A DNA stretch of 64,000 nt from Acidobacteriota bacterium (GCA_049967655.1 JBMFSH010000005.1:29264-93263), one strand, 5' to 3'. Counted from the stretch's first letter, positions 8,452-32,697 are shown. Notes: generated from the sequence alone by a model not told the origin. Made by a program: numbers and translations.

Positions 8452-9273
8452 TCATCTGGGCGCGCCGACGCGCTCCGGCCGCCCGGCTCTCAGGAACTGG
8501 ACGTAGGCCCACAGGGCGTCCACATCCTGGGGCTTGAGAACGTCACGGAAGCTGGGCATGTAGAGGTTTGCACGGTCCAGCAAAAAGGAGGCGGCGGGAT
8601 TGCGCGCCATGCGTTTGGATCGGCCGTCCAACACCCACTCCCGGAATTCCTCCTTGCTATGGACCAGGCTTGAGAAGTCCGCACCGATCCATCCGGGGAC
8701 GGTGAGGGTAAAGGAGCGCGGGTTTGGCACCCCGCCCGAGCCTCCTATCCCGTGGCAGGACTCGCAGCCGTATTTGCGCGAGAGCGTGAAGCCGTCCGAG
8801 GCGGGGCCCGAGTTCGGAACCCGGTAGCCGTCGGCCGCCATGACGTAGAGCGCCAGATCGTGTATCTCCGATGGACTCAGCCGTCCCTTGAAGGCGGGCA
8901 TGTGGAAGAGCGGAGCCGGCTTCGCGCCCAGGCCGGCCGCACTGGAGGAAGGCGGGGTGACCGCCTTCTTGGGTGGAGCTTCCGGCCGCCCGAAGCGGAT
9001 GAAGTTTTCGACCTCCTTGGGATTGTTGACGTACATCATCAGGTTCCCGCGGTAGAAGGAGGGGACGCTGCCCCACCGGCTTCCCGGGTCGTCGTGCTGG
9101 TCGCGCTGGAGGGGGGCGTGGCAGGCGAGGCACCCGTTCTCTGCCGCGAGGTTTCCCCCCGCCCGAACGGGGTTGCGGGTCCGGTAGGACCAGTACCAGT
9201 CGGGCCACCAGCGGGCCGTGGCGACCAGAATCACGAGCGCCACGACGAGGCCCGCGAGGCGTTTTTTCTTCAC
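8452..9273 (-). CDS. Dihaem c-type cytochrome, N-terminally anchored or exported
   Basis: CLACH and CESCH, each domain followed by MP(A/S)F axial Met; GTGA overlap with copA stop. Confidence 0.85.
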
Positions 9274-11933
9274 AGAGCCACCCGGCGCAGGCGCAGTGCG
9301 TTGCTGATGACCGAGACGGAGCTGAAACTCATGGCCGCGCTCGCGATGACGGGGCTCAGCAAGAGGCCGAAGAATGGGTACAGTATGCCCGCAGCCACTG
9401 GAATGCCGATGGTGTTGTACACGAAGGCGAAGAAGAGGTTCTGCTTGATGTTGGCCATGGTCTTCCGGCTGAGGGTGTAGGCCTTCGCAATGCCGCGCAA
9501 ATCGCCCTTCAGGAGGGTGATGCCCGCGCTCTCCATGGCCACGTCCGTGCCCGAACCCATGGCTATGCCCACCTGGGCCAGAGCGAGCGCCGGGGCGTCG
9601 TTCACCCCGTCTCCGGCCATGGCCACGAAGCGGCCCTCGCTCTGGAGGCGCTTGATCACGGCGCTCTTCTGTTCCGGCAGGACGTCCGCCTCGACCTCCT
9701 CGATGCCCAGCTCGTCGGCCACGGCCTGGGCCGTGACCCGGTTGTCGCCCGTCAGCATGACGATGCGGATCCCTTGTTTCTTCAGGGACCTCACCGCCTC
9801 CGCGGTGGTGCTCTTGACGGGGTCTGAGACGGTGATCATGCCGGCCAGCCGTCCTCCAAGGACCACGAACATGACGGTTCTGCCTTGCCTACGGAGGCTT
9901 TCCGCCTTTTCAGCGAGCGCTCCCTCCCCGATGTTCATGGACTGCAGCCAGCGGGCATTGCCGAGGGCAACGGCATGCTTTCCGACCCTTCCGGTCACTC
10001 CTTTGCCCGTGACGGATTGGAACTCCTCGACCTTCTGGAGGGCGATTCCTCTTTCTTCCGCTCCGGCGACGATGGCCGCCGCGAGGGGATGCTCGCTGGC
10101 TCGCTCAAGGCTTGCGGCGAGGCCAAGGAGCTCGTTCTCGGAGAGGCCGTCGAGGGCCACGACCTCCTTCAACCTGGGCTTGCCTTCGGTCAGGGTGCCC
10201 GTCTTGTCCACCACCAGCGTGTCCACCTTCTGAAGGGTTTCCAGGGCTTCGGCATTCTTGATGAGAATCCCTGCGCGGGCGCCGCGGCCGGTGGCCACCA
10301 TGATGGACATGGGGGTGGCGAGGCCGAGGGCGCACGGGCAAGCGATCATCAGGACCGCCACGGCGTTAACGAGCGCGTAGGCCAGGGCGGGCGGAGGGCC
10401 AAACAGGGCCCAGACGATGAAAGTGACCACCGACGAGAGAACCACGGCCGGCACGAAATAGGAGGCCACGGAGTCGGCGATGCGCTGGATGGGGGCCCGG
10501 CTTCGCTGGGCCTCGCCCACCAGGCGGACGATCTGGGCCAGCAGGGTGTCGCCGCCCACGCGCTCGGCCCGCATGGTGAACCCGCCGGTGGCATTGACCG
10601 TTCCGCCGGTGACGCGGTCGCCGGGGCTCTTCTCGACGGGGATGGGTTCGCCGCTGATCATGGATTCGTCCACGGAGCTGCAACCATCGAGCACGAGGCC
10701 GTCCACCGGCACCTTCTCGCCGGGCCGGACCCGCAGGGTGTCGCCGGGCCGGACCTGATCGAGGGGAACGTCCGATTCGGACCCGTCGGGGCTGACCATG
10801 CGCGCCGTCTTCGGCGCCAGCCCGAGCAGAGCCTTGATGGCGCTCGATGTGCGGCTCCTGGCCTTGAGTTCCATCACCTGGCCGAGCAGGACCAGCACCG
10901 TGATCATGGCGGCCGCGTCGAAGTAGGTGGCGATCTGCCCGCTTTCATCACGGAAGGCGGGCGGGAACATCTGCGGAAAGAGAAGAGCTACTACGCTGTA
11001 GGCGTAGGAGACGCCGACGCCCATGCCGATGAGGGTGAACATGTTCGGGCTGCGGTGGACCAGAGAATCCCATCCCCGCTTGAGCAGAACCCAGCCGGCC
11101 CAGAAAACCACGGGCGTGGAGAGAATGAACTCCAGCCATCCCGCCGTCCTGGAGGAGAGGAGGTGATGCGCGTTGAGCGCGGGGACCATATGGGGGAGCG
11201 CCACGATAAAAAGTGGCACGGTCAGGGCGAGCGCCACCCAGAAGCGCCGCTTCATGTCCTTATATTCCGGATTCTCCTCCTCCACCGTGACCGTCTGCGC
11301 CTCCAGGGCCATGCCGCACTTGGGACACGCGCCCGGACGGTCCCGCCGGACTTCGGGATGCATGGGGCAGGTGAAGACGGTGGCGGTCGCGGGCGCCGTG
11401 ATTTCCATGGGCTCTAGGGCCATGCCGCACTTGGGGCAGGCGCCGGGCCGGTCCTGAACCACCTCGGGATCCATGGGACAGGTGTAGCGGGTGCCCGACG
11501 GCGCCGCCTTTGCCACGCTTGGAGCCGGTACTTCGCCGAGGTAGGCCTGCGGATCCGCCTTGAACTTCCCCAGGCAGTGCGCCGAGCAGAACCAATAGGC
11601 GGTGCCGTCGTACTGGAAGCGTCCGGCGGCTCCGTCGGGGGAGACCGTCATGCCGCACACCGGATCCCTGGCCTGGGCGGCCGCCTTCACCGGCTGGTGC
11701 TTCATCATCATCGGCATGCCCATGGGCTTGTAGGCGGGATCGAGATACTTCTCGGGCTCGGCGAGGAACCTCTCCCGGCACTTCGGGTTGCAGAAGCCGT
11801 AGTGCTTGCCGCCGTACTCGGCGGTTCCGCCCCGGGGATGCTCCGGATCCACCACCATGCCGCAGACGGGGTCCCGCCCGCTGGCCGGCGAGCCGGCGGC
11901 TCCATGCATTCGACCCTCATCTTCCCTAGTCAT
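9270..11933 (-). CDS. copA: Cu(I)/Ag(I) P1B-1 ATPase with 2 YHS and 2 CPM(D/H)P metal-binding domains
   Basis: CPC, DKTGT, SEHP, GDGVND, YN and MSFSS motifs; GGAGG RBS before ATG 11933. Confidence 0.95.
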
Positions 11934-12000
11934 CGCTTGCCTCCAGGACGATCTTGCCACGAATCCCAGCGGATGCGGGCGATTGCTCGCGGATCACGGG

Positions 12001-15000
12001 TCATCCCTGCGGACTTGCCGCTCCGGCGGGCAGGCTTCGCCGTTTCCAGAGCAGGTAGATGGCGGGATAGACGAGAAGCTCCATCAGGAACGAGGTGAAG
12101 AGGCCGCCCACCATGGGCGCCGCCACGCGCTTCATCATGTCCGCGCCCGTTCCCTGGGACCACATGATGGGCATCAGACCCATGGCGGCGGCGGTGACGG
12201 TCATCATCTTGGGGCGGATGCGCTTCACCGCGCCGTGGACGATGGCGTCGTGGAGATCGGCCAGCGAACGCAGGCGACCGGCTTTCAAGGCCTCGTCGTA
12301 GGAGAGGTCCAGGAACAGGAGCATGAAGACGCCCGTCTCCGCGTCGAGCCCCATGAGCGCGATCATTCCCACCCACGTGGCGATGGACACGTTGTAGTGC
12401 AAGAAGTAGAGAAGCCAGATGGCGCCTACCACCGAGAAGGGGACCGCCAGCAGCACCACCAGCGCCTTGAAGGTGGACTTGGTGTTCATGTAGAGGAGCA
12501 GGAAGATGAGCAGCAGCGTGATGGGGACCACGACCTTCAGGCGCTGCCGCACGCGAATCATGTTCTCCCACTGTCCGCTCCAGAGGAGGGAGTAGCCCGT
12601 GGGCAGGTGCACCGCCCTCTCCACGGCCTTCTGCGCGGCCGCCACGTAAGAGCCCACGTCCCGGCCGGTCAGGTCCACGTAAACGTAACCAGCCAACATG
12701 CCGTTCTCATCCCGGATCATGGAGGGGCCCAGGTCCGTCCGAACGTCGGCCAGCTCCGCCATGGGAACCTGCACGCCGGTGGGCGTGCTCACGAGGATCC
12801 GCCGGAGCTGGTCGAGGTTGGCGCGCAGATCGCGGGGGTAGCGCAGGTTGACCGAGTAGCGCGCGCGGCCTTCGACGGTCGTCGTGATGTTCTCGCCGCC
12901 CACCGCCGTCATGATCACGTCCTGCAAGTCCCCTATGGTGAGGCCGTAGCGGGCCAGCGCGTCGCGCTTTGGGACGAAGTCCACGTAATAGCCCCCGCCG
13001 GTGCGCTCGGCGAAGACGCTGCGGGTGCCGGGGACCTTCTGCAGGACCCGCTGGATCTGCTCGCCGATGCGCTGAATCTCATCCAGGTTGTCCCCGAGAA
13101 CCTTGATCCCGATGGGGGTGCGCACTCCGGTGGTCAGCATGTCGATGCGGCCCCGGATGGGCATGGTCCAGGCGTTGGTGTTGCCGGGGATCTGGATGGC
13201 CCGGTCCATCCGGTCGATGAGCTCGTTGTAGGAGATGTGGTCGGACCAGATGTGGCTCAGGACGTATTTTACCCAGTCCGGTGCCCAGGAGGAGTACCAG
13301 CGCTTTCGAGCCTGCCACTGGGCTTCCGGCTTGAGCACCACCGTCGTCTCCATCATGGAGAAAGGAGCCGGATCGGTGGAGGTGTCGGCCCGGCCCGCCT
13401 TTCCAAAGACGGAGACCACCTCCGGGAAGGACTTGAGGATGCGGTCCTCGGTCTGGAGCAGCTCCTGGGCCTGGGTCACCGAAATGCCGGGCAGGGTGGT
13501 GGGCATGTAGAGGATCGTGCCCTCCTCCAGGGGCGGCATGAACTCCTCCCCCAATTTGAAATAGACGGGCACGGAGACGGCGATGATGAGCAGGGCCGCA
13601 GCGATAACGCTCTTGGGGTGGCGCAGAACAAAGCGGCACGGCCTCTCGTAGAGCCAGAAGAGGACCCGGCTCACGGGATGTTTCTCCTCGGGGTAGTAGG
13701 TGCCGATGAAGAGGGCATCGAGCGTCCTGCCGACGAACCGAGGCTTTACCTTGAAGCGGTCCATCCGGGCGAAGAGCATGCGCACGGCCGGATCGAGCGT
13801 CACGGCCAGGATGGCCGCGATGGCGATGGCGAGCGTCTTCGTGTACGCGAGCGGCTTGAAGAGGCGGCCCTCCTGGCCCGTCAAGGTGAAGATGGGCAGA
13901 AAGGCCACGGCGATGACGGCGAGGGAGAAGAAGACCGAGGGCCCCACTTCCAGCAGGGCCTCCAGACGCACGGCGTGGAAGTCGCCCACGCGGCCGCCTT
14001 CTTGCCACAGCTCCAGCTTCTTGTAGGCGTTCTCCACCTCCACGATGGCCCCGTCCACGAGCACGCCGATGGAGATGGCGATCCCGGAGAGGCTCATGAT
14101 GTTGGAGGTGATGCCCATGAAATACATGGGGATGAAGGCCAGGAGCACGCTGACGGGAATCGTGATGATGGGCACCATGGCCGAGGGGAAGTGCCAGAGG
14201 AAGAAGAGGATCACCAGGCTCACGACGAGCATCTCCAGGAGCAGCTCCTCCTTGAGGTTGTCGATGGAGCGCTGGATGAGCTCGGACCGGTCGTAGGCCG
14301 GCTCTATGGTGACGCCGGCGGGGAGCGAGGCCTTCATGGAGGCGAGCTTGGCCTTGACCCGGTCGATGACGTTGAGGGCGTTTTCGCCCTGGCGCATGAC
14401 CACGATGCCGCCCACGGCGTCGCCCTCGCCGTTCCAGTCGAGGATTCCGCGGCGCATTTGAGGACCGAGAGCCACCGTGGCCACGTCCTTCAGCAGCACC
14501 GGCGTTCCGCCGGGAGTCGCCTTCACGACGACCTTGTCGAGGTCGGAGGTGGATTGGAGGTACCCGTCGCCCCGCACCATGAACTCGGTGCCGGCGAATT
14601 CGATGAGCCGGCCGCCCACCTCGTTATTACTCTGACGGATGGCCCTGGCCACGTCCAGGATCGAGAGGTTGTAGGCCTGGAGGCGGATGGGGTCGATGGT
14701 CACCTGGTACTGCTTCTGGAAGCCGCCGATGCTCGCCACCTCGGCCACGCCGGGCACGCTCTCGAGGGCGTAGCGGAGGGTCCAGTCCTGATAGGAGCGC
14801 AGCTGGGCGAGGTTGTGCTCGTGGCTGTGGTCCACCAGAACGTACTGGTAGACCCAGCCGACGCCGGTGGCGTCCGGCCCCAGCTCGGGATGCACGCCCT
14901 CGGGCAGGTTGCCCTGGATCTTGGAGAGGTACTCCAGCACCCGGCTGCGGGCCCAATAGATGTCGGTGCCGCCGTCGAAGACCACGTAGACGTAAGAGAA

Positions 15001-15264
15001 GCCGAAATCCGAGAAGCCCCGGATGGCCTTCACCCGAGGCGTTCCCAGCAGGGCGGCGATGATGGGATAGGTGACCTGGTCCTCGATGACGTCCGGGCTT
15101 CGGTCCCAGCGCGTGTACACGATGACCTGGGTGTCGGACAGGTCGGGAATGGCGTCCAGGCGGATGTGGTGGAGGGCGTAGGCGGCGTAGGCCAGGGCCG
15201 CCCCCACGAGAGCGAGCACCAGGAACTTGTTGTGCGCCGAGAAGGTGATGAGCTTCCGGATCAT
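12001..15264 (-). CDS. cusA: CusA/SilA heavy-metal RND transporter
   Basis: DAIPDLSDTQVIV, GEEFMP, DPAPFSMMET, NAWTMPI; 1087 aa. Confidence 0.95.
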   Translation of the reverse strand: MIRKLITFSAHNKFLVLALVGAALAYAAYALHHIRLDAIPDLSDTQVIVYTRWDRSPDVIEDQVTYPIIAALLGTPRVKAIRGFSDFGFSYVYVVFDGGTDIYWARSRVLEYLSKIQGNLPEGVHPELGPDATGVGWVYQYVLVDHSHEHNLAQLRSYQDWTLRYALESVPGVAEVASIGGFQKQYQVTIDPIRLQAYNLSILDVARAIRQSNNEVGGRLIEFAGTEFMVRGDGYLQSTSDLDKVVVKATPGGTPVLLKDVATVALGPQMRRGILDWNGEGDAVGGIVVMRQGENALNVIDRVKAKLASMKASLPAGVTIEPAYDRSELIQRSIDNLKEELLLEMLVVSLVILFFLWHFPSAMVPIITIPVSVLLAFIPMYFMGITSNIMSLSGIAISIGVLVDGAIVEVENAYKKLELWQEGGRVGDFHAVRLEALLEVGPSVFFSLAVIAVAFLPIFTLTGQEGRLFKPLAYTKTLAIAIAAILAVTLDPAVRMLFARMDRFKVKPRFVGRTLDALFIGTYYPEEKHPVSRVLFWLYERPCRFVLRHPKSVIAAALLIIAVSVPVYFKLGEEFMPPLEEGTILYMPTTLPGISVTQAQELLQTEDRILKSFPEVVSVFGKAGRADTSTDPAPFSMMETTVVLKPEAQWQARKRWYSSWAPDWVKYVLSHIWSDHISYNELIDRMDRAIQIPGNTNAWTMPIRGRIDMLTTGVRTPIGIKVLGDNLDEIQRIGEQIQRVLQKVPGTRSVFAERTGGGYYVDFVPKRDALARYGLTIGDLQDVIMTAVGGENITTTVEGRARYSVNLRYPRDLRANLDQLRRILVSTPTGVQVPMAELADVRTDLGPSMIRDENGMLAGYVYVDLTGRDVGSYVAAAQKAVERAVHLPTGYSLLWSGQWENMIRVRQRLKVVVPITLLLIFLLLYMNTKSTFKALVVLLAVPFSVVGAIWLLYFLHYNVSIATWVGMIALMGLDAETGVFMLLFLDLSYDEALKAGRLRSLADLHDAIVHGAVKRIRPKMMTVTAAAMGLMPIMWSQGTGADMMKRVAAPMVGGLFTSFLMELLVYPAIYLLWKRRSLPAGAASPQG

Positions 15265-15268
15265 GCTC

Positions 15269-16738
15269 TCACTTCCCGGCGGCGATGGCCTGAAGGGCGG
15301 CCTTGAGCGAGGATTCCGAATCCACCAGGAAGTTGGCTGACGTGACGACGCGCTGGCCCGGGGTGAGGCCCGAGAACACCTCGAAGTAGCCGCCGCTGCG
15401 CGGCCCGAGGGTCACCTCGACGGGGGTGAGGGTGTCGTCGGGACCGGCCACGAAGGCGTAGTTGTGCTCTCCCGCCGGCAGGATCGCCGAGTCGGGAACG
15501 GCGGTCCGCATCCCGAGGTCGTACTCCAGGTGGGCATCGCCGTACATGCCGGGTTTGAGGACCATCCCCGGGTTGGGGATCACCATGCGGGCCTTAAGGG
15601 TCCGAGTGGCGGGATCGAGGAAAGGGTCCAGGAGGCTGACGCGCCCTTCGAAAACCTTGCCCGGCCAGTAGGGGAGAGTCACCTTGGCGGGCATGCCCAC
15701 CTTGACGTAGGGAAGATCCGATTCGTAGAGCTCGGCCTCGGCCCAGACGGTCGAGAGATCGGCCACGACCATGAGGGGATCGCCGGGCGTGATGCGCTGT
15801 CCCGGAAGCACCGTCTTATCCGTCACGTACCCGGAGGCCGGTGCGTAGAGAGTCAGCTCCTTTTCCACCTGCCCCGTCTTCTCGATCCGCTCGATCTGGG
15901 CCTGGCTGATGTCCCAGAGCCTGAGGCGCCGCACCGCTGCCTCCACCAGCTCCTGCCCCCCCTGGGACACTTGGGTGTAGGGACTCTGTGCGAGCTGCTT
16001 GGCGGCACCCAGGGCGGAGAGCAGCTCCTGTTCCGAGGCCACCAGGTCGGGGCTGTAGATGGAGAGGAGCGGCTGGCCCCGGCGGACGGCCTGGCCCGTG
16101 GCGTTGACGTAGAGCTTCTCGACCCAGCCGCCCACCTTCGTATTGACGCGGTAGAGGCGCGTCTCGTCGGGCACGATCCTAGCCGCGGTGCGCACGTCGC
16201 GGCGCAGGTCGCGCTCCTGAACCGTTCCGTAGGTCAACCCCATGCGCTTGGCGTCCCCGCTCGTCACCGAAATGGCCGCCAGTCCCTTGGGCGCCGGGGT
16301 GGACGGTTCGGTCACGGTGAAGGGCACCATCTCCATGCCCATGGAGTCCTTGCCAGGGTGATCGCTGATTTCGTTGGGGTTCATGGTGGAGCGCCACATG
16401 GTTTTGGTAACGGGCCTTCTCGGCGTGGAGGTTTCGGCGGGTTGGACGCCTGCCGTCGCCGCGCGCGGAAGAGCTGCCTCGCCGGCCGGAGGGCCAGGTT
16501 GGGCCGGCTCTGGGGCCGACTGGCCGGTAGCCGAATCGGATTTGACCGGCACGAGCCTCATGCCGCAGATGGGGCAGTCTCCGGGTTTGTCAGAGGTGAC
16601 CTGGGGATGCATGGGGCAGCGGTAGAGCTGGGCTTCCTGCGCCTTCCCGCTGACGGAGCACGCCGAGAGAGCCACGAGAAGGACCATCACGGCAAGGGCG
16701 CCCAGGCATGCGTTGTTGAGACGACGGGAGGGACGCAT
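15269..16738 (-). CDS. cusB: CusB-family RND membrane fusion protein (lipoprotein)
   Basis: LSAC lipobox, YRCPMHP..CPICGM, IYSPDL, LKPGMY, FLVDSES. Confidence 0.92.
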   Translation of the reverse strand: MRPSRRLNNACLGALAVMVLLVALSACSVSGKAQEAQLYRCPMHPQVTSDKPGDCPICGMRLVPVKSDSATGQSAPEPAQPGPPAGEAALPRAATAGVQPAETSTPRRPVTKTMWRSTMNPNEISDHPGKDSMGMEMVPFTVTEPSTPAPKGLAAISVTSGDAKRMGLTYGTVQERDLRRDVRTAARIVPDETRLYRVNTKVGGWVEKLYVNATGQAVRRGQPLLSIYSPDLVASEQELLSALGAAKQLAQSPYTQVSQGGQELVEAAVRRLRLWDISQAQIERIEKTGQVEKELTLYAPASGYVTDKTVLPGQRITPGDPLMVVADLSTVWAEAELYESDLPYVKVGMPAKVTLPYWPGKVFEGRVSLLDPFLDPATRTLKARMVIPNPGMVLKPGMYGDAHLEYDLGMRTAVPDSAILPAGEHNYAFVAGPDDTLTPVEVTLGPRSGGYFEVFSGLTPGQRVVTSANFLVDSESSLKAALQAIAAGK

Positions 16739-16809
16739 TCTCTTCTCCTCGCTTTGGGGACAGCGACGGGCCGACGATCGTCGTGAAAGGAGATCGCGCC
16801 CCGCTACCT

Positions 16810-17304
16810 TCAGTGTGAGTGTCCCGGGCCGGAGGTGGGAACAGTCGGCGCGGAGGACCGTTCTGCTGCGGGCGCTACGGCTCGCGCATCCAACAGCATG
16901 CCGCATTTCGGGCACTTGCCCGGGTGATCCTGACGCACCTCCGGGTGCATGGGACAGGTGTAGACGTAGGCGGCCTTGGCGGTCCGCCTCTCAAGGGCCA
17001 TTCCGCACCGGGGGCATCTGCCGGGATGGTCCTCACGAACGTCGCCGTGCATGGGACACGTGTAGTAGACGATCTCCCGCGGCGCGGCCTCGAGGAACAT
17101 GCCGCACTTGGGGCAGCGACCGGGCTTGTCCGAGGTGACGTCGGGATGCATGGGACAGACGTAAGTGATCTTCGCGAAGGCGACTCCCGCAGATGCGCTC
17201 CGTGGTGACTTGGCTGGGCCGCCCGCCAGGACAGCGAGAGAAAGCACCAGCAGGGCTAGGGCGGCGAGGGCGGCGAGAGACAACTTTGTCGTGCGTGGCT
17301 TCAT
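16810..17304 (-). CDS. Secreted protein with three heavy-metal-binding repeats (YxCPMH...CPxCGM)
   Basis: N-terminal hydrophobic signal, three tandem motifs, C-terminal HSH; ATGA overlap with upstream gene. Confidence 0.88.
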   Translation of the reverse strand: MKPRTTKLSLAALAALALLVLSLAVLAGGPAKSPRSASAGVAFAKITYVCPMHPDVTSDKPGRCPKCGMFLEAAPREIVYYTCPMHGDVREDHPGRCPRCGMALERRTAKAAYVYTCPMHPEVRQDHPGKCPKCGMLLDARAVAPAAERSSAPTVPTSGPGHSH

Positions 17305-18647
17305 TCTCCGTGCTCCTTCTTTTCTTGGGGGGTGACGGTGGGCCGGCCAGCGCCTTCGCGGAACGCAGCCCGGGATGACGGCGCGCCCAGGATGGCTTCG
17401 ATGCGGGCGAGGGCTACCTGGAAATCGGCCTGCGCCATGAGGGTCTGGCGCTGATCGCCGTAGTAGCCCGCCAGCGTGTTCAGAAGAGTCGTGAAGTCCG
17501 TCTTTCCGACGCCATAGCTGGCCAGGCTCGATTCATAGGCCTGCTTGGCCTGGATCAGGAGGCCGTTTTGAAACAGTTCGAACACGGCGCGATCGCGCGA
17601 AGCCGTCTGCCAGGCCTGGGTGAGATCGTAGCGAACCTGGTTCATGACGCCGGCCGTCTCCTGCTTGGCTCCCTCCTGGTCGGCCAGGGCTTCATCCAGA
17701 GCGGGGAGGTAGCGGTCCTTCCGGTGGAAGAAGGGGAGGGTGATGCCGACCATGGCCGTGAGGTAGTCTCCTCCGCCCATGGTTACGTCGTTGTGCCGGT
17801 AACGCCCACCCACGATGAAGTCCGGCTTGAAGTCCTGTCTGGCTATGGCGACCCGTCTCTCCTCCACCTGCTCCCTGGCCCGTGCGGCGGCGATCCGCGG
17901 CGCTTCCGCGTCCAGCTCGTTCAGGAGGCCGTCCAGAGAGGGCTCCTCGGCGGGCTTGGGGATGTCTATGCGCCGGAGGAGAGAACGGTCGAGAGACCCG
18001 CCCAACAGGTCCGTCAGCCGAGCGGCGGCGATCTCCCGCTCCTCCACCAAGTCGAGACGCTCCTTGTGGGCTTGGGTGACTGCGGTCTGGGCCAGAAGCA
18101 CGTCGGTCTGCGTGCCGCCGCCGGAGGCGTAGAGCGCCATGGCCCCCTTGGCGGCGGCCTTCAAGGCGTCCGTGGTCTGGTCGTTGAGCTCCAACAGCCG
18201 GAGGTTCAGGGCGTAACCATAGGCCGCCGCCTTCACCTCGCCCCGCAGCTCGCTCTCCATGGCGCGCAGATCTGCCTGGGCCACGGCAACCTGACGGCGC
18301 GCTTTCTCCTCGCGAAGCTTGCGCTTGCCGGGATAGGGCAGCTCCTGCGTGAGGCCGATGGAGACCCCTTTGCTGAGCGCGTCGCCCGCGTTGAAATGGT
18401 TCACCGACAGCATCATGAGCTCCACGTCGGCGGTGGGGTCCGGAAGAGCCTTGGCCTGCGGGAGGCGATCGAGGGCTGCCGCCACCTTCTGGCGCTGCGC
18501 CGCGATAGCCGGATTGTGGGTCAGGGCCATCTCCACCAAGGCCGCCATGGGGTCCTGCGCGGGCGCCTCCGGCGTCTGGGCGGGACAGGCGGAGGTGGCC
18601 ACCACCATGGCGACGGCTCCTAGTGCGGCAAAGATGGGCTTCATCAT
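17301..18647 (-). CDS. cusC: TolC/CusC-family outer membrane efflux protein
   Basis: Signal peptide, LPDP, QELPYPGK, coiled-coil OEP repeats; heads the RND operon. Confidence 0.85.
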   Translation of the reverse strand: MMKPIFAALGAVAMVVATSACPAQTPEAPAQDPMAALVEMALTHNPAIAAQRQKVAAALDRLPQAKALPDPTADVELMMLSVNHFNAGDALSKGVSIGLTQELPYPGKRKLREEKARRQVAVAQADLRAMESELRGEVKAAAYGYALNLRLLELNDQTTDALKAAAKGAMALYASGGGTQTDVLLAQTAVTQAHKERLDLVEEREIAAARLTDLLGGSLDRSLLRRIDIPKPAEEPSLDGLLNELDAEAPRIAAARAREQVEERRVAIARQDFKPDFIVGGRYRHNDVTMGGGDYLTAMVGITLPFFHRKDRYLPALDEALADQEGAKQETAGVMNQVRYDLTQAWQTASRDRAVFELFQNGLLIQAKQAYESSLASYGVGKTDFTTLLNTLAGYYGDQRQTLMAQADFQVALARIEAILGAPSSRAAFREGAGRPTVTPQEKKEHGE

Positions 18648-18689
18648 GACTCCTCCCGGTGCCCGCCCGGCCGGCGGTGGCTCCTCTTA

Positions 18690-18706
18690 GGCACGTTGCG
18701 TGCCAA
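18690..18706 (-). promoter_or_regulatory. sigma54 -24/-12 promoter of the cus/cop operon
   Basis: Minus strand TTGGCACGCAACGTGCC (GG-N10-GC) ~43 bp upstream of the cusC start; adjacent GAFTGA activator. Confidence 0.72.
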
Positions 18707-18813
18707 GGGGCCCTCGGTTTGGCCGCCCAGGACCTGCCCGCCGGTATGCGGACCAGGGGCGAGACTGCGAGGAACTCCCTTCGAGACACCTCATGAACCG
18801 TGCACCCCCCATT

Positions 18814-18888
18814 GTAGAATATTCTGCGCTCAATGTGGTTAATAGTGTTCACGGGTGGGCAGGCTGGACCCTGGGAGAAAGTTCTGCG
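18814..18888. promoter_or_regulatory. Candidate enhancer (UAS) pair for the NtrC-type regulator
   Basis: GTAGAATATTCTGCG (18814) and GGAGAAAGTTCTGCG (18874), near-palindromic, 60 bp apart. Confidence 0.45.
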
Positions 18889-18928
18889 TTGGCCCAGGCC
18901 TTGCAACCAAGGAGCCGGAGGAGAGGCG

Positions 18929-20011
18929 ATGGAGAAACGGGCATCGTGGGTTCGGATTCTCATCCTCGTGCTGATGGCGTCCTTTACGCTGTCGCTCCAC
19001 TACATGCTCTTTCCGATGCCCCATTGGCTTCACCTGCTTCATCGCCGCCTCTGTTACGTGCCCATCCTCCTGGGGGGGCTCTGGTTCGGGTTGGCCGGGG
19101 GCTCTGGCGTGGCCCTGGTGATCTCATCCGCCACGCTTCCGCTGGCGCTCATGAATCATGGGCCCCTGTGGACCAACGAGGACCTCATCGAGATCACCTT
19201 TTACCTCGGCCTCGGCATCCTCACGGGCGTGCTCGTGGACAAGCGGGAGCGGGAGCGTTCGAACGCCGAGCGGCTCCAGCAGCAACTGGAGCGGAGCGAG
19301 CGGCAGGCCGCCCTCGGCCGCCTCGCTTCGGGTGTGGCCCACGAGGTGCGCACGCCGCTGGGTTCCATCCAGGGCGCGGCTGAAATCTTGGCCGAGGACT
19401 TTCCTGAAGGCCATCCCAAGAAGGCCTTTCTCGATATCCTCCTGGCCGAAGTAGACCGCCTCAAGGCGGTGGTGCAGGAGTTTCTGGATCTGGGGCGGCC
19501 CATCACGGTGGAACCAGAGGAGCTGGGAGCCAAGAATATTGCCGAAGCCTGCCGCAACAGCCTCCTAGCGTTTGCCGAGGGCACCGGGGTGCGGGTCCAC
19601 TTGCGGGTGCCCGCGAACTGCCGCGTCTGGGCGGATCCATTTCGTCTCCACCAGGCGCTCACGAACCTCCTGCGCAATGCCATCCAGGCCTCGGCAAGAG
19701 GCGGACGGGTGCACATTAGCGCCTGGATGGCCGGGGAGGGGTGCCTTTTCGCTGTGGAAGACGAAGGCTCTGGCCTGCCTCTGGGCGAAGAAGGCCGGCT
19801 CTTCGAGCCCTTCTTCACGAAGCGAAAGGACGGGACGGGGCTCGGCCTCGCCCTGACGCGGCAGATCGCGGAGGCGCACGGAGGCTGGGTGAAGGGAGAG
19901 AACAGGCCCGAAGGTGGTGCCCGCTTCAGCCTATGGCTGCCCGGGCGCGGCCCAGAGCCTGTGGAAGCTGGCGGGGGCGTTGTCCTGAACAACCGGACGG
20001 AGGGGAGCTGA
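18929..20011 (+). CDS. Membrane sensor histidine kinase with His-rich intramembrane input domain
   Basis: HEVRTPL H-box, NAIQA, EDEGSG, FEPFFT, GTGLGL; LHYMLFPMPHWLHLLH loop. Confidence 0.92.
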   Translation: MEKRASWVRILILVLMASFTLSLHYMLFPMPHWLHLLHRRLCYVPILLGGLWFGLAGGSGVALVISSATLPLALMNHGPLWTNEDLIEITFYLGLGILTGVLVDKRERERSNAERLQQQLERSERQAALGRLASGVAHEVRTPLGSIQGAAEILAEDFPEGHPKKAFLDILLAEVDRLKAVVQEFLDLGRPITVEPEELGAKNIAEACRNSLLAFAEGTGVRVHLRVPANCRVWADPFRLHQALTNLLRNAIQASARGGRVHISAWMAGEGCLFAVEDEGSGLPLGEEGRLFEPFFTKRKDGTGLGLALTRQIAEAHGGWVKGENRPEGGARFSLWLPGRGPEPVEAGGGVVLNNRTEGS

Positions 20012-20013
20012 TC

Positions 20014-21345
20014 GTGGCGCGCGCCGCACGCATTCTGATGGTCGAGGACGATCCCAACCTGCGCAGGATCCTCTCCTACCACCTGGAGAGGCTGGAGTAC
20101 GCCGTGGCCCAAGTGGCCGACGGACGCTCCGCGCTTGAGCGCCTGGCAGTCGAGCCCTTCGATCTCGTCGTTACGGATGTGCGCATGGCGGGAATGGACG
20201 GCATCGAGCTGCTGAAGGCCATCCGCGAGAAGGATCCCGACCTGCCCGTGGTGGTCATGACGGCCTACGGGACCATTCAGGATGCGGTGGAGGCCATGCG
20301 GCTCGGGGCCGCCGACTACCTCACGAAACCCGTCGAGCGGGAGACTCTTCTGCTCACGGTCCAGAAAGCGCTGAGGGTCTCGGACCTCCGCAAAGAGAAC
20401 CGGCGCCTGAGAGAGAACCTCCAGGAGAAGCGGCCCGTCGAATCCATCCTGGGCACGAGCGCCCCCATCCAGAGGCTTCTCGATGCCATCCGCCGCGTGG
20501 CTCCCACGGACGCAACGGTCCTGATCACGGGGGAGAGCGGCACGGGAAAGGAGCTCGTGGCCCGCGCCCTCCACTCGCTCTCCCCGAGAGGCGGCAAGCC
20601 ATTCGTGGCCATCAACTGCGCCGCCATGCCCAGGGAACTCCTGGAGAGCGAGCTCTTCGGGCACGAGCGGGGCGCCTTCACGGGAGCCACCGAGAGCAAG
20701 CCCGGCAAGTTCGTGCAGGCCAACGGCGGCACCCTCTTTTTGGACGAGATCGGCGACATGGACCTGTCGCTCCAGGCCAAGATCCTCCGGGTTCTTCAGG
20801 AGCGGGTCGTGGACCCGGTCGGCTCGCGTGGCTCGAAAGCGGTGGACGTGAGGATTCTGGCGGCCACCCATCGGGACCTGTCGGGGGCGGTGAAGGCGGG
20901 AGCCTTTCGGGAGGACCTCTACTGGCGCCTCAACGTGATTCCTCTTGGCGTGCCCCCCCTGAGAGAGCGCATGGAGGACGTGCCGATTCTCTTTTCGCAT
21001 TTCTGCCGGCAGTATGGTGGGGGCGAACCCAGACTCGAACCCGGGGCCATGGCGATTCTCCGCAGTTACCGATGGCCAGGGAACGTCCGCGAGCTCCAGA
21101 GCCTGTGCCAGCGCTTGGCCATCCTCCACCCGGGCCAGGTGGTGGTCCCGGCCATGCTCCCCCCCGAGATGCGGGGCATGGAGCAGGAGGCGGGATCGCC
21201 GGCGGAAGGCTTGTGGGGCATGGAGCGGGAGGCCATCGTGAGAGCCCTCCGGGAGCACAACGGGAACCAGTCCGCCGCGGCCCGCTCCCTTCGCATCCCC
21301 AGGCACATCCTCATCTACCGCATGAAGAAATACGGCCTGTCCTGA
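20014..21345 (+). CDS. sigma54-dependent response regulator (NtrC/ZraR family)
   Basis: REC (VEDD, TDVRM), GESGTGKE, GAFTGA, WPGNVREL, Fis-type HTH. Confidence 0.94.
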   Translation: MARAARILMVEDDPNLRRILSYHLERLEYAVAQVADGRSALERLAVEPFDLVVTDVRMAGMDGIELLKAIREKDPDLPVVVMTAYGTIQDAVEAMRLGAADYLTKPVERETLLLTVQKALRVSDLRKENRRLRENLQEKRPVESILGTSAPIQRLLDAIRRVAPTDATVLITGESGTGKELVARALHSLSPRGGKPFVAINCAAMPRELLESELFGHERGAFTGATESKPGKFVQANGGTLFLDEIGDMDLSLQAKILRVLQERVVDPVGSRGSKAVDVRILAATHRDLSGAVKAGAFREDLYWRLNVIPLGVPPLRERMEDVPILFSHFCRQYGGGEPRLEPGAMAILRSYRWPGNVRELQSLCQRLAILHPGQVVVPAMLPPEMRGMEQEAGSPAEGLWGMEREAIVRALREHNGNQSAAARSLRIPRHILIYRMKKYGLS

Positions 21346-21576: not shown

Positions 21577-21592
21577 TGGCACCGAGGTTGCA
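21577..21592 (+). promoter_or_regulatory. sigma54 -24/-12 promoter
   Basis: TGGCACCGAGGTTGCA, near-consensus, ~100 bp upstream of ATG 21695. Confidence 0.82.
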
Positions 21593-21694: not shown

Positions 21695-22726
21695 ATGATG
21701 AATAGTAGACAGGCTCGACCGGGGAAAACCAGGGCGACTCACACTCATCGGCCCGTGCGGGCCACCGCTTGGCTGTGCGGGGTGCTGGCCGCAACGCTGT
21801 TGGCCGCGGCGACTCTGCCCGCCAGCGCTCAGACCACGGGAATGCCCGAGGGGATGGCCTACTTCGCCGGTCCCATCACGGCCATGGACGGCAGCAGCGT
21901 CACCATCCAGGGGGCTCAACTCGCCCTGGGCTCTCAGGCCGTCTACGTGGGTGAGGACGCCTCCGGAAATCTGCAGACGCTGACGCCCGCCGACTTCCAG
22001 GTGGGAGAAGTGGTCACGGCCTTCGAAACCAACAGCAGCGGCACTCCGACCCTCACGTCCCTCTACCGGGGCCTGACCTTCATGATTCAGGGCCAGGTGA
22101 CGGCCATTCAGAACGACTCCCAAGGCAACCCGCAGACCGTCACGGTGGATGGTGTCTACACCATCAACGTCTCGCAGACGCTTTTTGATGGTATGGATTC
22201 CGCCAACATGGGCAACGGCATGGGCGGCAACATGTCCGGCGGCATGGGCTCCGGAGGCATGATGGGCGGCGGTGGCATGGGCGGTGGCGGCGGCATGGGC
22301 GGTGGCTCAGGCAGCGGTTCCGGCGGTGGCATGGGCGGTGGTGGCATGGTCAAAGAGAGCACCATGGTCAGCGACACCCAGCTCCTTGAGGTGGGCTCTT
22401 ACGTCGCCTTCGGCGGCATCGTGAGCAACGGCCTGTATGCCGCCGTCTTCGGCCACGTGATGGCCAACGGCATGATGGGAAACGGCTCCATCCAGAGCCT
22501 CATGCACGACTCCTCGGGCAACGTGTCCGGCTTCATGATGAGCAAGGGCGGCACCAGCACCAACGTGGTGATGAACGGCGCCACGCAGATCACCAAGAAG
22601 GGCCAGATGATGTCCGGCAACTCTCTCACTACGGGGATGAAGGTCAAAGTCCAGGGCCTTACGCGGGCCGACGGCTCCATACTGGCCCAGTCCATCACGG
22701 TCAAGGGCGGCGGCGGAATGATGTAG
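21695..22726 (+). CDS. Secreted Met/Gly-rich beta-repeat (DUF5666-like) protein
   Basis: AAGGAG RBS; signal peptide ending ASA; repeats like GMKVKVQG...DGSILAQSITV; central GGMG tract; ~30 Met in 343 aa. Confidence 0.8.
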   Translation: MMNSRQARPGKTRATHTHRPVRATAWLCGVLAATLLAAATLPASAQTTGMPEGMAYFAGPITAMDGSSVTIQGAQLALGSQAVYVGEDASGNLQTLTPADFQVGEVVTAFETNSSGTPTLTSLYRGLTFMIQGQVTAIQNDSQGNPQTVTVDGVYTINVSQTLFDGMDSANMGNGMGGNMSGGMGSGGMMGGGGMGGGGGMGGGSGSGSGGGMGGGGMVKESTMVSDTQLLEVGSYVAFGGIVSNGLYAAVFGHVMANGMMGNGSIQSLMHDSSGNVSGFMMSKGGTSTNVVMNGATQITKKGQMMSGNSLTTGMKVKVQGLTRADGSILAQSITVKGGGGMM

Positions 22727-22959
22727 CAGCGAGGCTCTCCTCGTCAGACACTTCTGGAGACCGCGTCAGGCCGCGATGGTTCCGGGCCTCCGGCCGCGGT
22801 GGGTGGTGAAATTTCCCCAGCGACGGGGCGTTGGTAGGGACGTGGGCAGCCGAAGGCTGTGGCACGGGAACCAGACCCCTTGGGGATCAAACCTCCCCCA
22901 CGGAAGGCCGAGGCCTTCCGATTCTTACCGCCGAGGCGCTCGGCAAAGGAGGAGAAGTC

Positions 22960-23271
22960 ATGAACCGGAAGCTCAAGTCGGTGGTAGTGAATGCGGCGGT
23001 GGCCGGTATGATCGCGGGGTTTGCGGCGGCGGCGCCGGCCTCCGCGGCGGAGCGCGGTGCCGCCAAGATGACCAGCAACGGGTGCGGCGGGAAGAATGGA
23101 TGTGGGTCGTCCAACTCGACCTCGCAGAACCAGCAAGCGAAAAGCAAGGATCCGAAAGCCGCCAAGGCGGCCACTTCGACCCAGACGAAAGCATCCACCA
23201 AGGGACCCAAGAAGGTCGCTCCCAAGGCGGCCCCGGCCAAGACTTCGGCCGAGACGCCGTCCAAGAGCTGA
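22960..23271 (+). CDS. Putative MNIO RiPP precursor (signal peptide, NGCGGKNGCG core, Lys/Ala-rich tail)
   Basis: AGGAGGAG RBS; 103 aa; lies directly upstream of DUF692. Confidence 0.82.
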   Translation: MNRKLKSVVVNAAVAGMIAGFAAAAPASAAERGAAKMTSNGCGGKNGCGSSNSTSQNQQAKSKDPKAAKAATSTQTKASTKGPKKVAPKAAPAKTSAETPSKS

Positions 23272-23419
23272 GATTGCCGCCGGGGCATCATCCGCCCGGC
23301 GGTTATGGCTCTCGCCCGCGCGGGGGCGCGGAGGCGCGGAGGCGGAAGGTGAAGTCGCCGGAGACGGCTTCTTGCCCCTGCGGTCCTCGGCCCCCGGTGG
23401 GCGATGGGAGGACACTCGT

Positions 23420-24265
23420 TTGAGCGAAACCCGATGGGGGTTTCCAGACCTGGGACTGGGGGTGGGGCTGCGCTCGCCGCACTTCGGGCACATCCTTGCG
23501 GAGCGGCCCGAGGTGGGTTTCTTCGAAGTGCTCACGGAGAACTATCTGGACACGGAGGGCCTTCCCCTCTACGTCCTGGACTGGGTGGCCGAGCGCTACC
23601 CCGTCGTCATGCACGGCGTGTCGCTCTCCATCGGATCGAGCGATCCCCTGGACTTCGGCTACCTGGCGAAGGTCAAGGCGCTGGCCGCCAGAACGAAGGC
23701 CTGCTGGATTTCGGATCACCTGTGCTGGACCGGCGTGCTGGGGCGCAACACTCACGACCTCCTGCCCATCCCCTACACCGAGGAGTCGCTTCGCCACGTG
23801 AGCGAGCGCATCCGGGTGGTCCAGGATGTGCTGGAGCGTCCGCTGGTACTGGAGAACGCCTCCACCTACCTGGAGTTCGTCCCCTCCCAGATGAGCGAGT
23901 GGGAGTTCATCGCCCGCATGGCCGAGGAGGCCGACTGCGGGCTGCTCCTGGACGTGAACAACGTCTACGTGAGCGCCTTCAACCACACCTTCGACGCCGA
24001 GGAGTACGTGGACGCCATCCCGGGCGATCGGGTGTGCCACATCCACGTGGCCGGGCACACGCACAAGGGGACGCACATCCTGGACACGCACAGCGACCGC
24101 GTGGTGGACCCCGTGTGGGCCCTCTACGGGCGCGCGCTGCGGCGCATGGGTCTGCGGAGCACCCTACTGGAATGGGACGCGGACATCCCCCCCTTCGAGG
24201 TGGTGCACGCCGAGGTGCTCAAGGCGCGGGCCTGGCGAAATCGGGAGGCGGCCCGTGCGGCGTGA
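23420..24265 (+). CDS. Multinuclear non-haem iron oxidative enzyme (MNIO, DUF692/MbnB-TglH-BufB family)
   Basis: GVGLR, ENY, HGVSLSIG, SDHLCW, DLLP, LEN, LLDVNN, HVAGH, DTH, LEWD; TTG start after GGAGGA. Confidence 0.93.
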   Translation: MSETRWGFPDLGLGVGLRSPHFGHILAERPEVGFFEVLTENYLDTEGLPLYVLDWVAERYPVVMHGVSLSIGSSDPLDFGYLAKVKALAARTKACWISDHLCWTGVLGRNTHDLLPIPYTEESLRHVSERIRVVQDVLERPLVLENASTYLEFVPSQMSEWEFIARMAEEADCGLLLDVNNVYVSAFNHTFDAEEYVDAIPGDRVCHIHVAGHTHKGTHILDTHSDRVVDPVWALYGRALRRMGLRSTLLEWDADIPPFEVVHAEVLKARAWRNREAARAA

Positions 24266-25124
24266 TCCCAACCTCAGGACGAGCGCCTTCCCCCTGGACG
24301 TAGTGCAGCGGTGGCTGCAGGCGGTGATCGTCCACCCGGGCGGGCTGCAGGAGGCGCTGGCCTCCGAGGAGGCCTCGCGGGAGCTGCCGGCGGGGAGCCT
24401 CGAGGATCTCGTGAAGCCCTCCGCCACCCTCACCGCCGAAGCGCGCGTTGCGATCTACCATGAGATGGTCCTGCTCCGGATGCGGGAGGCGCTGGCCGCG
24501 GACTACCCGGTGACCCAGTACCTCCTCGGCGAGGAGGCTTTCACCGCGCTCGTGCGGGACTACCTCCAGCGCTACCCCTCGCGGAGCTACACCCTCAACC
24601 GGCTGGGGGACCACCTGCCGCAGTTTTACCTGGACGAACCCGAGCGGGCGGGCGCCGCCTTCCTGCACGACCTGACGAGCGCCGAGCTGGCCCTCGCGCA
24701 GGCCTATGAGGAGGCCGAGTCACCGGTGCTGACACCGGATGCGGTGCTCGCGGTCCCGGCGGCGGCTTGGCCTCAGGTCCGGCTCGTCCCCGTAGCCTCT
24801 CTGCGCCTCCTGGCCCTGCGCCATCCGGTGCTGCCCTTCATGGAGGCCTGCAGGCTGGAGCTGCCCTGCCCCACGCCCAGGAGCGGTGCGACCTGGCTCG
24901 CCGTCTGGCGGAAGGACTACACCCTCCATCGAAGGAGACTCAGCCGCGCCGAGCACCGTCTCCTCCATGCCCTCGCCGCAGGGCTCCCCCTGGGGCAGGC
25001 GCTGGTGGAGACCGCCGCCTCTCTCAAGGGCTCCGACGCTTCCAAGCGGATCCGGAGGTGGTTCCGCACCTTCGTGGCCGAGGGCCTGTTCTCCCGGATT
25101 GACCTGCGGGGCTGTCAGCCTTAA
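24255..25124 (+). CDS. MNIO partner protein (DUF2063, BufC/HvfC-like)
   Basis: RVAIY, LAADYP, YLQRYPSRSYTLNRLG; overlaps MNIO stop. Confidence 0.85.
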   Translation: MRRDPNLRTSAFPLDVVQRWLQAVIVHPGGLQEALASEEASRELPAGSLEDLVKPSATLTAEARVAIYHEMVLLRMREALAADYPVTQYLLGEEAFTALVRDYLQRYPSRSYTLNRLGDHLPQFYLDEPERAGAAFLHDLTSAELALAQAYEEAESPVLTPDAVLAVPAAAWPQVRLVPVASLRLLALRHPVLPFMEACRLELPCPTPRSGATWLAVWRKDYTLHRRRLSRAEHRLLHALAAGLPLGQALVETAASLKGSDASKRIRRWFRTFVAEGLFSRIDLRGCQP

Positions 25125-25148
25125 CCTGACCGGGCCGGGATCGTCGAA

Positions 25149-25547
25149 ATGGATCGACTGTACGAGGCCGGAGCGGACGCCGTAGTTCTTGTCCATGTCG
25201 GATTCGTTCTCTTTGCGGTGTTCGGGGGATTGCTGGTGCGGCGCCGGCCGGGACTGGCGTGGGTTCACCTGCCGGCCCTGATGTGGGCCGGAGCGGTGGA
25301 GTTCGCCGGCTGGATCTGCCCGTTGACGCCGCTGGAGGACTGGCTCCGTGTCCGGGGCGGCGGAAGCGCCTACCGCGGCGACTTCATCGCCCACTACCTC
25401 CTGCCCGTGCTCTATCCGGCGGGGCTCACGCGCGGGGTCCAGCTCCTCCTCGGCCTCCTGCTCGTCCTCTTCAACGCGGCCGTGTACGCGTGGGTTCTGC
25501 GCTCCAAGCGGAGGAACGGCGAAAAGCCTCCCGGCCGCGGAGCCTAG
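25149..25547 (+). CDS. DUF2784 family membrane protein
   Basis: ADAVVLVH, HLPA, CPLTPLE, FIAHY, LYP motifs. Confidence 0.82.
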   Translation: MDRLYEAGADAVVLVHVGFVLFAVFGGLLVRRRPGLAWVHLPALMWAGAVEFAGWICPLTPLEDWLRVRGGGSAYRGDFIAHYLLPVLYPAGLTRGVQLLLGLLLVLFNAAVYAWVLRSKRRNGEKPPGRGA

Positions 25548-28776: not shown

Positions 28777-28843
28777 GGAACCCCCCATGAAAGGTGAGAT
28801 GCTCATCAATCCGTACGGCCCGTAAAGTTCCTCCCGAACGGGG

Positions 28844-28872
28844 CCGCCCGCGGGCAGGACGCCCGCGGGCGG
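28844..28872. other. Perfect 12-bp GC hairpin between cupin and HAO genes
   Basis: CCGCCCGCGGGC-AGGAC-GCCCGCGGGCGG; no U-tract. Confidence 0.6.
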
Positions 28873-28887
28873 ATCACGCCGTCCGAT

Positions 28888-29232
28888 TTATCGAATCGCC
28901 ACGGGAGAAGCGGCCTTCACCATGGTCAGGAGGAAGACCAGCCGCTCCCGCGCCGTGATGGCGTGGTTCAGGCCCGGAGGCATGACGAAGAGCGCGCCAG
29001 GTTTGGCCTCGTGGACCGTGCCGCCCAGCAGGAGGTCGCCGCTCCCCTCCAGGACCTGCACGACGGCTTCGAAGGGGGCCGTGTGCTCGCTGAGGGCCTG
29101 GCCCGGTTCGAAGCAGAAGAGCACCAGCTTCAGCGTCGGCGACTGGTAGAGGGTCTTGCTGACGATGCCGCTCTCGGCGAACTGGACGGCGGCACGAAGG
29201 TCTTGAACCGAGGGGACGAGGGGCTCGCTCAT
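28888..29232 (-). CDS. Cupin-domain protein
   Basis: GIVSKTL, FEPGQALSEHTAP, MPPGLNHAI. Confidence 0.87.
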   Translation of the reverse strand: MSEPLVPSVQDLRAAVQFAESGIVSKTLYQSPTLKLVLFCFEPGQALSEHTAPFEAVVQVLEGSGDLLLGGTVHEAKPGALFVMPPGLNHAITARERLVFLLTMVKAASPVAIR

Positions 29233-29247
29233 GCTTGGATTCTCCTC

Positions 29248-31539: not shown

Positions 31540-31619
31540 GGGCCTGCTCCTCCTTTGTATTCACCTTCACTTTACGCCCGTTACAGTATGCAAAGCCGAG
31601 CGGCGCCGCCCTTCCCTTC

Positions 31620-32231: not shown

Positions 32232-32283
32232 AGGATTTACCTCCTTAGAAGGGGTGCGACGGGGAGCGTCGGCCGGGGCATAG

Positions 32284-32697
32284 TCACTCCGCCAGGGGCT
32301 GATGCCCCGAACGGAGATCGGCGACGGTGGTTTTCTCCAGCAGGGTGTCGTATTCACTCTGCACGCGAGTCCAGCGGGAATGCAGCGGACAGGGGTGGGC
32401 CTCGTCGCAGGCCCGGAGGCCGAAGACACACTGCCTGGGCAGGGACGAGCCCTCGAAGAGCTCCAGGACGCGCCCGATGGGCTGCGCCAGGGCCTGCTCC
32501 CTCAGCAAGAAGCCCCCGCCCCAGCCCTTCTGGCTTTCGACGAAGCCTCGCTTGCGGAGCTGGTTCAAGATCTTGGACAGGTAGTTGGCGGGAATCCGCG
32601 TGGCCTCGGCGATCTGGCCACCCTGGACCCATTGCCCTGGGCGGTCGGCGAGGAAGCCGAGAGTCATGAGCGCGTATTTCGTGGTCTGAGAGATCAT
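32284..32697 (-). CDS. Rrf2-family transcriptional regulator with three Cys
   Basis: KYAL, YLSKIL, KGWGGGF, C-x6-C-x5-CPLH. Confidence 0.9.
   Translation of the reverse strand: MISQTTKYALMTLGFLADRPGQWVQGGQIAEATRIPANYLSKILNQLRKRGFVESQKGWGGGFLLREQALAQPIGRVLELFEGSSLPRQCVFGLRACDEAHPCPLHSRWTRVQSEYDTLLEKTTVADLRSGHQPLAE

Follow-up and report, generated by a model that had tools for sequence, protein, structure and literature searches.

What can a bufferin-type maturation system act on when its precursor peptide has only two cysteines? The question is raised by a 64,000-nt stretch of an Acidobacteriota genome (JBMFSH010000005.1:29264-93263; hereafter the window), in which genes for a small precursor peptide, an MNIO (DUF692), a DUF2063 partner, and a DUF2784 membrane protein follow a sigma54-associated heavy-metal island on one strand (table 1). 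A sequence-only reading had described this arrangement, which we found as described, and had interpreted it as a distinct subfamily of copper metallophores. Our comparisons indicate that the precursor is an orthologue of 14-Cys bufferin-2 precursors that lacks their 12-Cys core. With moderate confidence, we propose that the BufB-type MNIO and its DUF2063 partner would oxidize C42 and/or C48 of the motif NGCGGKNGCG to 5-thiooxazoles, and that the modified peptide would then be exported by Sec and bind excess copper in the periplasm.

By gene content, this is a system of the known captophorin/bufferin class. A Cys-bearing precursor with a Sec-type signal (judged from composition and alignment) lies directly before an MNIO of the BufB group with intact metal ligands, which is directly followed by a DUF2063 partner with an RRE-like domain. 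The MNIO scores 357 bits against PF05114 and 353.6 bits against the BufB model NF050167 (cut-off of 310); the HvfB model (267 bits; cut-off of 360) and, for the partner, the HvfC model (50 bits; cut-off of 142) fail. Among 84 homologs, 89 columns are conserved to at least 90%, and the MNIO retains 88 of them, including the DVNN and DTH motifs and the catalytic Asp of EWD. Counterparts of DVNN and DTH are essential in HvfB according to bioRxiv 10.64898/2026.07.17.739211, the equivalence being drawn by motif. The partner matches PF09836 at 74 bits and its C-terminus matches the NGO1945_C/RRE-like model PF22106 with an E value of 8e-4, below the cut-off of that model.

Comparison to characterized systems (PMC11626156, PMC12452194, and PMC13097082) shows both likeness and difference. 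Bufferin 2 of Caulobacter vibrioides (BufA2-BufB2-BufC2; PMC11626156, PMC12452194) has the same precursor-MNIO-DUF2063 order, a Sec-type signal, and a BufB-type MNIO, and its cluster, as here, has no DoxX or sigma gene. The absence of DoxX and extracytoplasmic function (ECF) sigma genes from our locus was correctly noted in the sequence-only reading; that it is atypical does not hold, since Caulobacter buf2 is described without DoxX, DoxX is dispensable for Buf1 (PMC11626156), and Buf2 clusters are described without sigma/anti-sigma genes (PMC12452194). Captophorins, including those of the EGKCG type (fontiphorin, HvfA/oxazolin, and gonophorin; PMC13097082), share the MNIO + PME1 pair, the signal peptide, and a peptide that is probably unstructured and carries short Cys-Gly repeats, but our precursor has a single Cx5C module instead of many repeats. 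The "CxxxxC" family (PMC12452194) combines a signal peptide with a conserved Cx4C; the spacing here is Cx5C, and the precursor may or may not be a member. Relative to Buf2 and BUF_6/12Cys proteins (NF050166, NF050167), the precursor has no 6/12-Cys core, no BufA2 HMM (hidden Markov model) match, no Cys-Lys motif, and no spare Cys for a scaffold disulfide, and it has a long basic Cys-free tail. In Buf2 MNIOs the catalytic Asp is followed by Asp; in our MNIO and those of the 14-Cys relatives it is followed by Ala. The precursor thus fails the Buf2 Cys pattern yet descends from Buf2: its direct orthologues are Buf2 proteins of the 12-Cys type to which one further NGC module is added at the N-terminus.

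The precursor gene is genuine, because its homologs keep the motif invariant and the motif has a pN (nonsynonymous differences per site) of 0 against a pS (synonymous differences per site) of 0.42. Six homologs are 82–87% identical (one, at 87%, is named as Acidobacteriota), the motif is invariant in seven of seven close sequences, and length is constant (102–103 aa in all six full-length sequences). Homologous MNIO genes are likewise preceded by a peptide bearing the same motif. The gene has a strong GGAGG Shine–Dalgarno site and a third-position GC content (GC3) of 0.82. An N-region that is basic, followed by a hydrophobic stretch and by ..PASA at residue 29, forms the 29-aa signal seen in the earlier reading, and sequence, hydropathy, and alignment bear it out along with the presence of only two Cys; export of the precursor is predicted to be via Sec. 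Both Cys are in SNGCGGKNGCG (Cx5C), and each is followed by Gly. Scans of the precursor yielded no family match in NCBIfam or Pfam (best E values of 0.065 and 0.11, respectively) and thus no curated family: there was no match to BufA1/Buf1 (DUF2282 domain, four Cys) in either library, none at E ≤ 1 to the BufA2 HMM NF050166, whose six or twelve conserved Cys contrast with two here, none at E ≤ 1 to the SbtA thio(seleno)oxazole precursor HMM TIGR04081, and no EGKCG repeat of the HvfA/oxazolin type in the sequence. In the ESM Atlas, precursor matches were all below 0.9, and membrane-protein matches were to DUF2784 only. The genome is 99.3% complete and has a single MNIO; neither a motif scan nor tblastn found a second precursor (a Buf2-like or EGKCG open reading frame) elsewhere in it.

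The distribution and phylogeny of the MNIOs point to the origin of the two-Cys form. Across 25 genomes of the family, 10 have this MNIO (three of the four of this genus and seven in two other genera). In all seven loci of other genera, as well as Acidobacteriota loci L002 and L050, the precursor consists of the signal and NGCxxKxGC motif seen here and a doubled six-Cys bufferin-2 domain, for a total of 14 Cys. The three 14-Cys orthologues scanned each match the BufA2 model NF050166 twice at 40–55 bits, under the cut-off of 60. Profile comparison aligned residues 1–69 of the precursor at 99.6% probability, and MNIOs of two-Cys and 14-Cys orthologues are ∼75% identical. An 89-row MNIO tree (a quick tree, from which L077 was omitted as a duplicate and short fragments were removed) unites the three two-Cys MNIOs (99) inside a larger clade of 12 rows (99); the remaining nine of these rows are from loci with 14-Cys precursors. 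A 30-row tree recovers the same group (98). The approximately unbiased (AU) test rejects a clade of all core-bearing loci (P = 0.018) as well as a clade of this genus with three core-less loci of another phylum (P = 0.022). Because the nearest outgroups of the two-Cys/14-Cys clade mostly carry Buf2 cores, the most parsimonious interpretation is that this genus lost the 12-Cys core.

When kept in register, the tail weakly resembles the first of the lost domains (P = 0.008–0.11, with the register picked by eye) and may be an eroded remnant of it. The DNA following the motif is no nearer to that of relatives than are shuffles (16–148 of 200 shuffles reach its score); that of congeneric G002 alone exceeds shuffles, partly via the MNIO start region contained in the stretch. 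A frameshift was rejected as the source of the missing core, as the other two frames of the tail show no Buf2-like Cys pattern. A structure model of a 14-Cys relative has a pLDDT (predicted local distance difference test) of 43, too low to use. Further reduced forms in the same group, at L141/L226 of genome G199 and in protein P0022, combine an NGC module with a small number of NSCKG units but lack a full Buf2 core; the G199 locus has a 72%-identical MNIO and DoxX.

The NGC module is also found outside the genus. A search with a signal + motif profile, built on 15 rows including four non-family peptides and therefore biased toward those, returned 130 representatives; a crude pattern detects no Buf2-type CKGxNxC unit in 112 of 128 short matches. 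Sources, where a name is given, are Planctomycetota and Myxococcota. The consensus of 411 Cx5C units is [KA]NGC[NSG]G[PK][ND]GC[GNS]G; our module agrees with it, and single-module forms exist, although most stand-alone precursors (Planctomycetota, Myxococcota-like, and others) have two or three modules. Like our precursor, these have a similar signal and Cx5C module, and for some the next gene downstream encodes an MNIO. In many, a Cys close to the signal end makes them possible lipoproteins. Among 57 loci retrieved with the profile, 18, from two other groups, are core-less by pattern: seven are directly upstream of an MNIO, 10 are beside DoxX with no flanking MNIO, and one is neither. Peptides of loci L186–L191 and L193–L195 (class of a Planctomycetota genome) have two to three modules beside DoxX and no MNIO nearby; the presence of a high-scoring MNIO elsewhere in all five genomes tested among MNIO-less loci suggests that such peptides are modified in trans.

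None of 22 core-less NGC peptides scanned exceeded an NCBIfam cut-off, and these precursors constitute a wider uncurated group that current HMMs miss. Their core-less state in other phyla arose separately from that in our genus, since the other NGC MNIOs do not group with ours (AU test, P = 0.02). The existence of such a group agrees with the sequence-only reading; an independent origin of the subfamily is not supported, given the orthology to 14-Cys bufferin-2 precursors. Candidates cataloged in Data set S2 of PMC13097082 include Buf2-like precursors extended by SNGCG as well as GKDGC/GKNGC repeats that are unstructured, and PMC12452194 reports hundreds of unclassified signal-peptide precursors with 1–18 Cys. 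Our literature search found no description or test of the NGC module, though the supplements of both papers may list such peptides, and a search on MNIO and Acidobacteriota found nothing on the module. We tentatively suggest, short of favoring it outright, that NGCxGxNGC is an undescribed unit that by itself serves as an MNIO substrate and binds metal. It would be an add-on of 12-Cys bufferins, stand alone in more than 100 sequence clusters from several phyla, and be the whole product here after core loss, i.e., a minimal two-thiooxazole metallophore with neither folded scaffold nor disulfide. Elsewhere, alphaproteobacterial MNIO loci L037 (5095-5457) and L041 (5085-5992) have two precursors in tandem, of which one is poor in Cys and has an extended acidic tail.

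Modification of C42 and/or C48 is proposed because MNIO–PME1 systems make 5-thiooxazoles, Gly follows both Cys, and the enzyme has Ala at its specificity position. According to PMC13097082, all characterized MNIO–PME1 systems install 5-thiooxazoles and generally bind copper, and FonBC, which prefers a small residue (Gly) after Cys, modified a substrate with two repeats but failed to modify one with a single repeat. Family knowledge predicts the chemistry (−4 Da per Cys, about 305 nm), the export, and the copper binding. The Ala at the position following the catalytic Asp is compatible with small residues and is found in two-Cys and 14-Cys loci alike, ruling out a switch at the published specificity site. 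At MNIO residue 57 (window ∼23555-23557), in the loop after ENYLDT, a Gly-to-Glu change is confined within its clade to the two-Cys genus; speculatively, it might fit the enzyme to an altered substrate.

Several observations weigh against this proposal. In Buf1 and Buf2 the outer Cys escape modification and pair in a stabilizing disulfide, without which Buf1 was undetected (PMC11626156); the Cx5C pair here could simply be a disulfide. BufA1 is modified even without its signal peptide, so recognition involves part of the core, and our peptide has lost most of its core. The NGC module of the 14-Cys precursors is itself only a putative target of modification, and no MNIO flanks 11 of the 18 core-less NGC loci (10 of these 11 confirmed to ∼6 kb). 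The root of the 14-row clade is unresolved in the 30-row tree. ATPase/Cus genes are near none of 80 wider MNIO loci, such that the link to copper rests on family knowledge and the context in this genus. Lastly, a deletion in sister genome G003 removed the precursor and MNIO genes together with most of the DUF2063 gene but left the copper island and DUF2784 in place; the scar (L118 10632-10897) consists of ∼130 bp of precursor leader and 114 bp of DUF2063.

Some of these points would fit a functional peptide that is not heterocyclized and instead forms a disulfide loop, binds Cu(I) through plain thiolates, or has a single modified Cys, with the MNIO kept for an unrecognized substrate. The unmodified outer Cys of Buf1 and Buf2, the 10 of 18 related NGC loci that are beside DoxX with no MNIO nearby, and the disappearance of the Cys-Lys context typical of Buf2 substrates are consistent with it. 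However, the five genomes tested from MNIO-less loci all encode an MNIO elsewhere, the scans described above uncovered no alternative substrate in our genome, and the specificity Ala fits small residues and is unchanged from 14-Cys relatives. We consider this explanation unlikely.

The loss of three core genes from G003, the lack of an MNIO match in 15 of 25 family genomes, and the low complexity of the tail could alternatively reflect a decaying operon, in which loss of the core inactivated the bufferin and genes are being lost. Patterns of selection argue against this. Across four same-genus loci (pooled pairs, which are not independent; pS of 0.2–0.4), no reading frame is broken, and pN/pS values are 0.12 (MNIO), 0.36 (DUF2063), 0.30 (DUF2784), and 0.22 (precursor). 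Parts of the precursor have values of 0.14 (signal), 0 (motif), and 0.32 (tail). Purifying selection acts on motif, tail, and enzymes and, with the constant precursor length and a conserved upstream element, makes decay quite improbable.

The sequence-only reading amounted to a further alternative, an independently evolved minimal metallophore in which DUF2784 does the job of DoxX under sigma54 two-component control. In its favor, DUF2784 is beside the operon in two genera at different ends, an unexplained link that we treat as a small hint, and the cluster-type DoxX has no match in our genome, which has two unrelated DoxX-family genes on another contig. The island is adjacent to the operon in four of five same-genus loci, and the interval from DUF5666 to the precursor yielded no terminator-like site. 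But a substitution of DoxX by DUF2784 is contradicted by their co-occurrence: DUF2784 is upstream of DoxX in all three loci of genus g6. DUF2784 also outlasts the operon, being intact in G003 and present in G004 and G012, three family genomes that have no MNIO match. It is near none of the 80 wider MNIO loci, and none of 27 DUF2784 loci outside the family has an MNIO, PME1, or DoxX within 1.5 kb. A DoxX-like gene precedes the precursor in five of seven other-genus loci (the one scanned scored 75 bits against the HvfX model, with a cut-off of 80), and the cluster-type DoxX is in the flank of only nine of the 80 wider loci (52 with full flanks). Together with the dispensability of DoxX in bufferins, gene context indicates that DUF2784 is a neighbor, neither a DoxX substitute nor a required part, though it is probably cotranscribed with the operon. 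Literature searches found no paper pairing DUF692 with DUF2784, the latter appearing only in tuberculosis-gene papers. In G020 (L116 / L102), the DUF2784 copy covers model positions 34–108 only and may be truncated or frameshifted.

Sigma54 control fares no better. With the -24/-12 consensus, for which the count at two mismatches is below chance, the window has a single perfect match, ahead of DUF5666 (21577), and a site with one mismatch ahead of the efflux operon; none was found before the precursor. The DUF5666 site recurs in all four other same-genus loci. An opposite-strand gene splits island and operon in sister genomes G001 and G003 and is a stub in L108; only because it is deleted in our genome is the precursor directly after the copper module. 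In G002, the operon is beside a Ysc84 gene and the DUF5666 gene and island are on another contig. Sigma54 control of the operon is consequently unsupported, the copper island is a neighbor and not a required part, and this combined alternative is very improbable.

The operon instead probably has its own promoter, possibly of the ECF type. GTGAAAT-N16-CGTT boxes upstream of the precursor are conserved with a variable spacer in all four same-genus loci and absent from all nine other loci checked. We take the boxes to resemble ECF-sigma promoters, but the pattern occurs six times in the genome versus ∼2 expected, and no cognate sigma was identified for them in our analysis. No sigma70 promoter was found upstream of the precursor, and read-through from DUF5666 into the operon may occur in our genome. 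A structured RNA leader was considered and set aside, with no Rfam match in 5000-35000 and leaders that do not align across genera. In L002, GTAACC-N16-CGTA, which resembles a SigF-type promoter, is upstream of 5461 before a 14-Cys precursor.

Table 1. Features of the two-Cys bufferin-type locus and the adjacent copper/silver island, in window coordinates.
Feature	Position	Strand	Evidence
Precursor, 103 aa, C42 and C48 only; bufferin-2 orthologue without 12-Cys core	22960..23271	+	Open reading frame, homologs, alignment, pN/pS, profile comparison
Predicted Sec signal peptide, residues 1-29, common to 14-Cys relatives	22960..23046	+	Hydropathy, alignment, pN/pS 0.14
NGC module N40-G49 (C42, C48; Cx5C), likely MNIO target	23077..23106	+	7/7 close homologs, pN 0, module consensus
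Cys-free Lys/Ala/Ser/Thr/Pro tail, at the position of relatives' first bufferin-2 domain	23113..23268	+	pN/pS 0.32
BufB-type MNIO (DUF692), TTG start, metal-ligand motifs intact	23420..24265	+	HMM scans, conserved columns, pN/pS 0.12
DUF2063/RRE partner protein (PME type 1, BufC-like)	24255..25124	+	HMM scans, pN/pS 0.36
DUF2784 membrane protein	25149..25547	+	125 bits, pN/pS 0.30
Promoter-like element GTGAAAT-N16-CGTT, ∼150 nt upstream of precursor	22806..22832	+	Conservation in same-genus loci
Perfect sigma54 -24/-12 match upstream of DUF5666 gene (neighboring unit)	21577..21591	+	Only perfect consensus match in window
DUF5666 Met/Gly-rich protein, last gene of neighboring sigma54 heavy-metal island	21695..22726	+	Domain scan
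Cu/Ag island genes: P1B ATPase, CusA-like RND pump, CusB, HMBD protein, OEP/TolC-like protein	9270..21345		
Cu/Ag island regulators: histidine kinase and sigma54 response regulator	within 9270..21345		

Around the operon, the P1B ATPase of the island carries CPC, YN, and MxxSS; the CusA-like RND pump was recognized from sequence and not from the library scan. In G003 (L118 8063-8512), the response regulator and DUF5666 flank a cupredoxin gene that has a separate sigma54 match. G002 (L121) has the same two sigma54 matches as G003, and our window has no cupredoxin gene at that position. A mine-drainage RNA library (run X2) includes contigs of a relative that are ∼85–92% identical over pieces of the ATPase, CusB, OEP, and DUF5666 genes (9270-9939, 15570-16338, 17527-18350, and 21821-22420), which are candidate transcripts at most. 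In three same-study RNA runs, coverage of the operon was uninformative and speaks neither for nor against its expression. On the other side, a beta-CASP metallo-beta-lactamase ribonuclease gene (25544-26953, minus strand) converges on DUF2784, with stop codons overlapping by 4 nt, and is kept in the genus. It is followed by a nitric oxide (NO)-stress cluster (27451-32697, minus strand) of an Rrf2 regulator, hemerythrin, quinol-type NO reductase, cupin, and HAO-like multiheme cytochrome that is syntenic in G001 and G003.

The chemistry and function of the system are probably those known for captophorins, and in that respect the gain is incremental. The two-Cys and 14-Cys orthologues, on the other hand, represent a natural matched pair for what a bufferin maturase needs to recognize its substrate. 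The pair bears on whether the extra NGC module is modified and on whether two thiooxazoles without a scaffold suffice to buffer copper.

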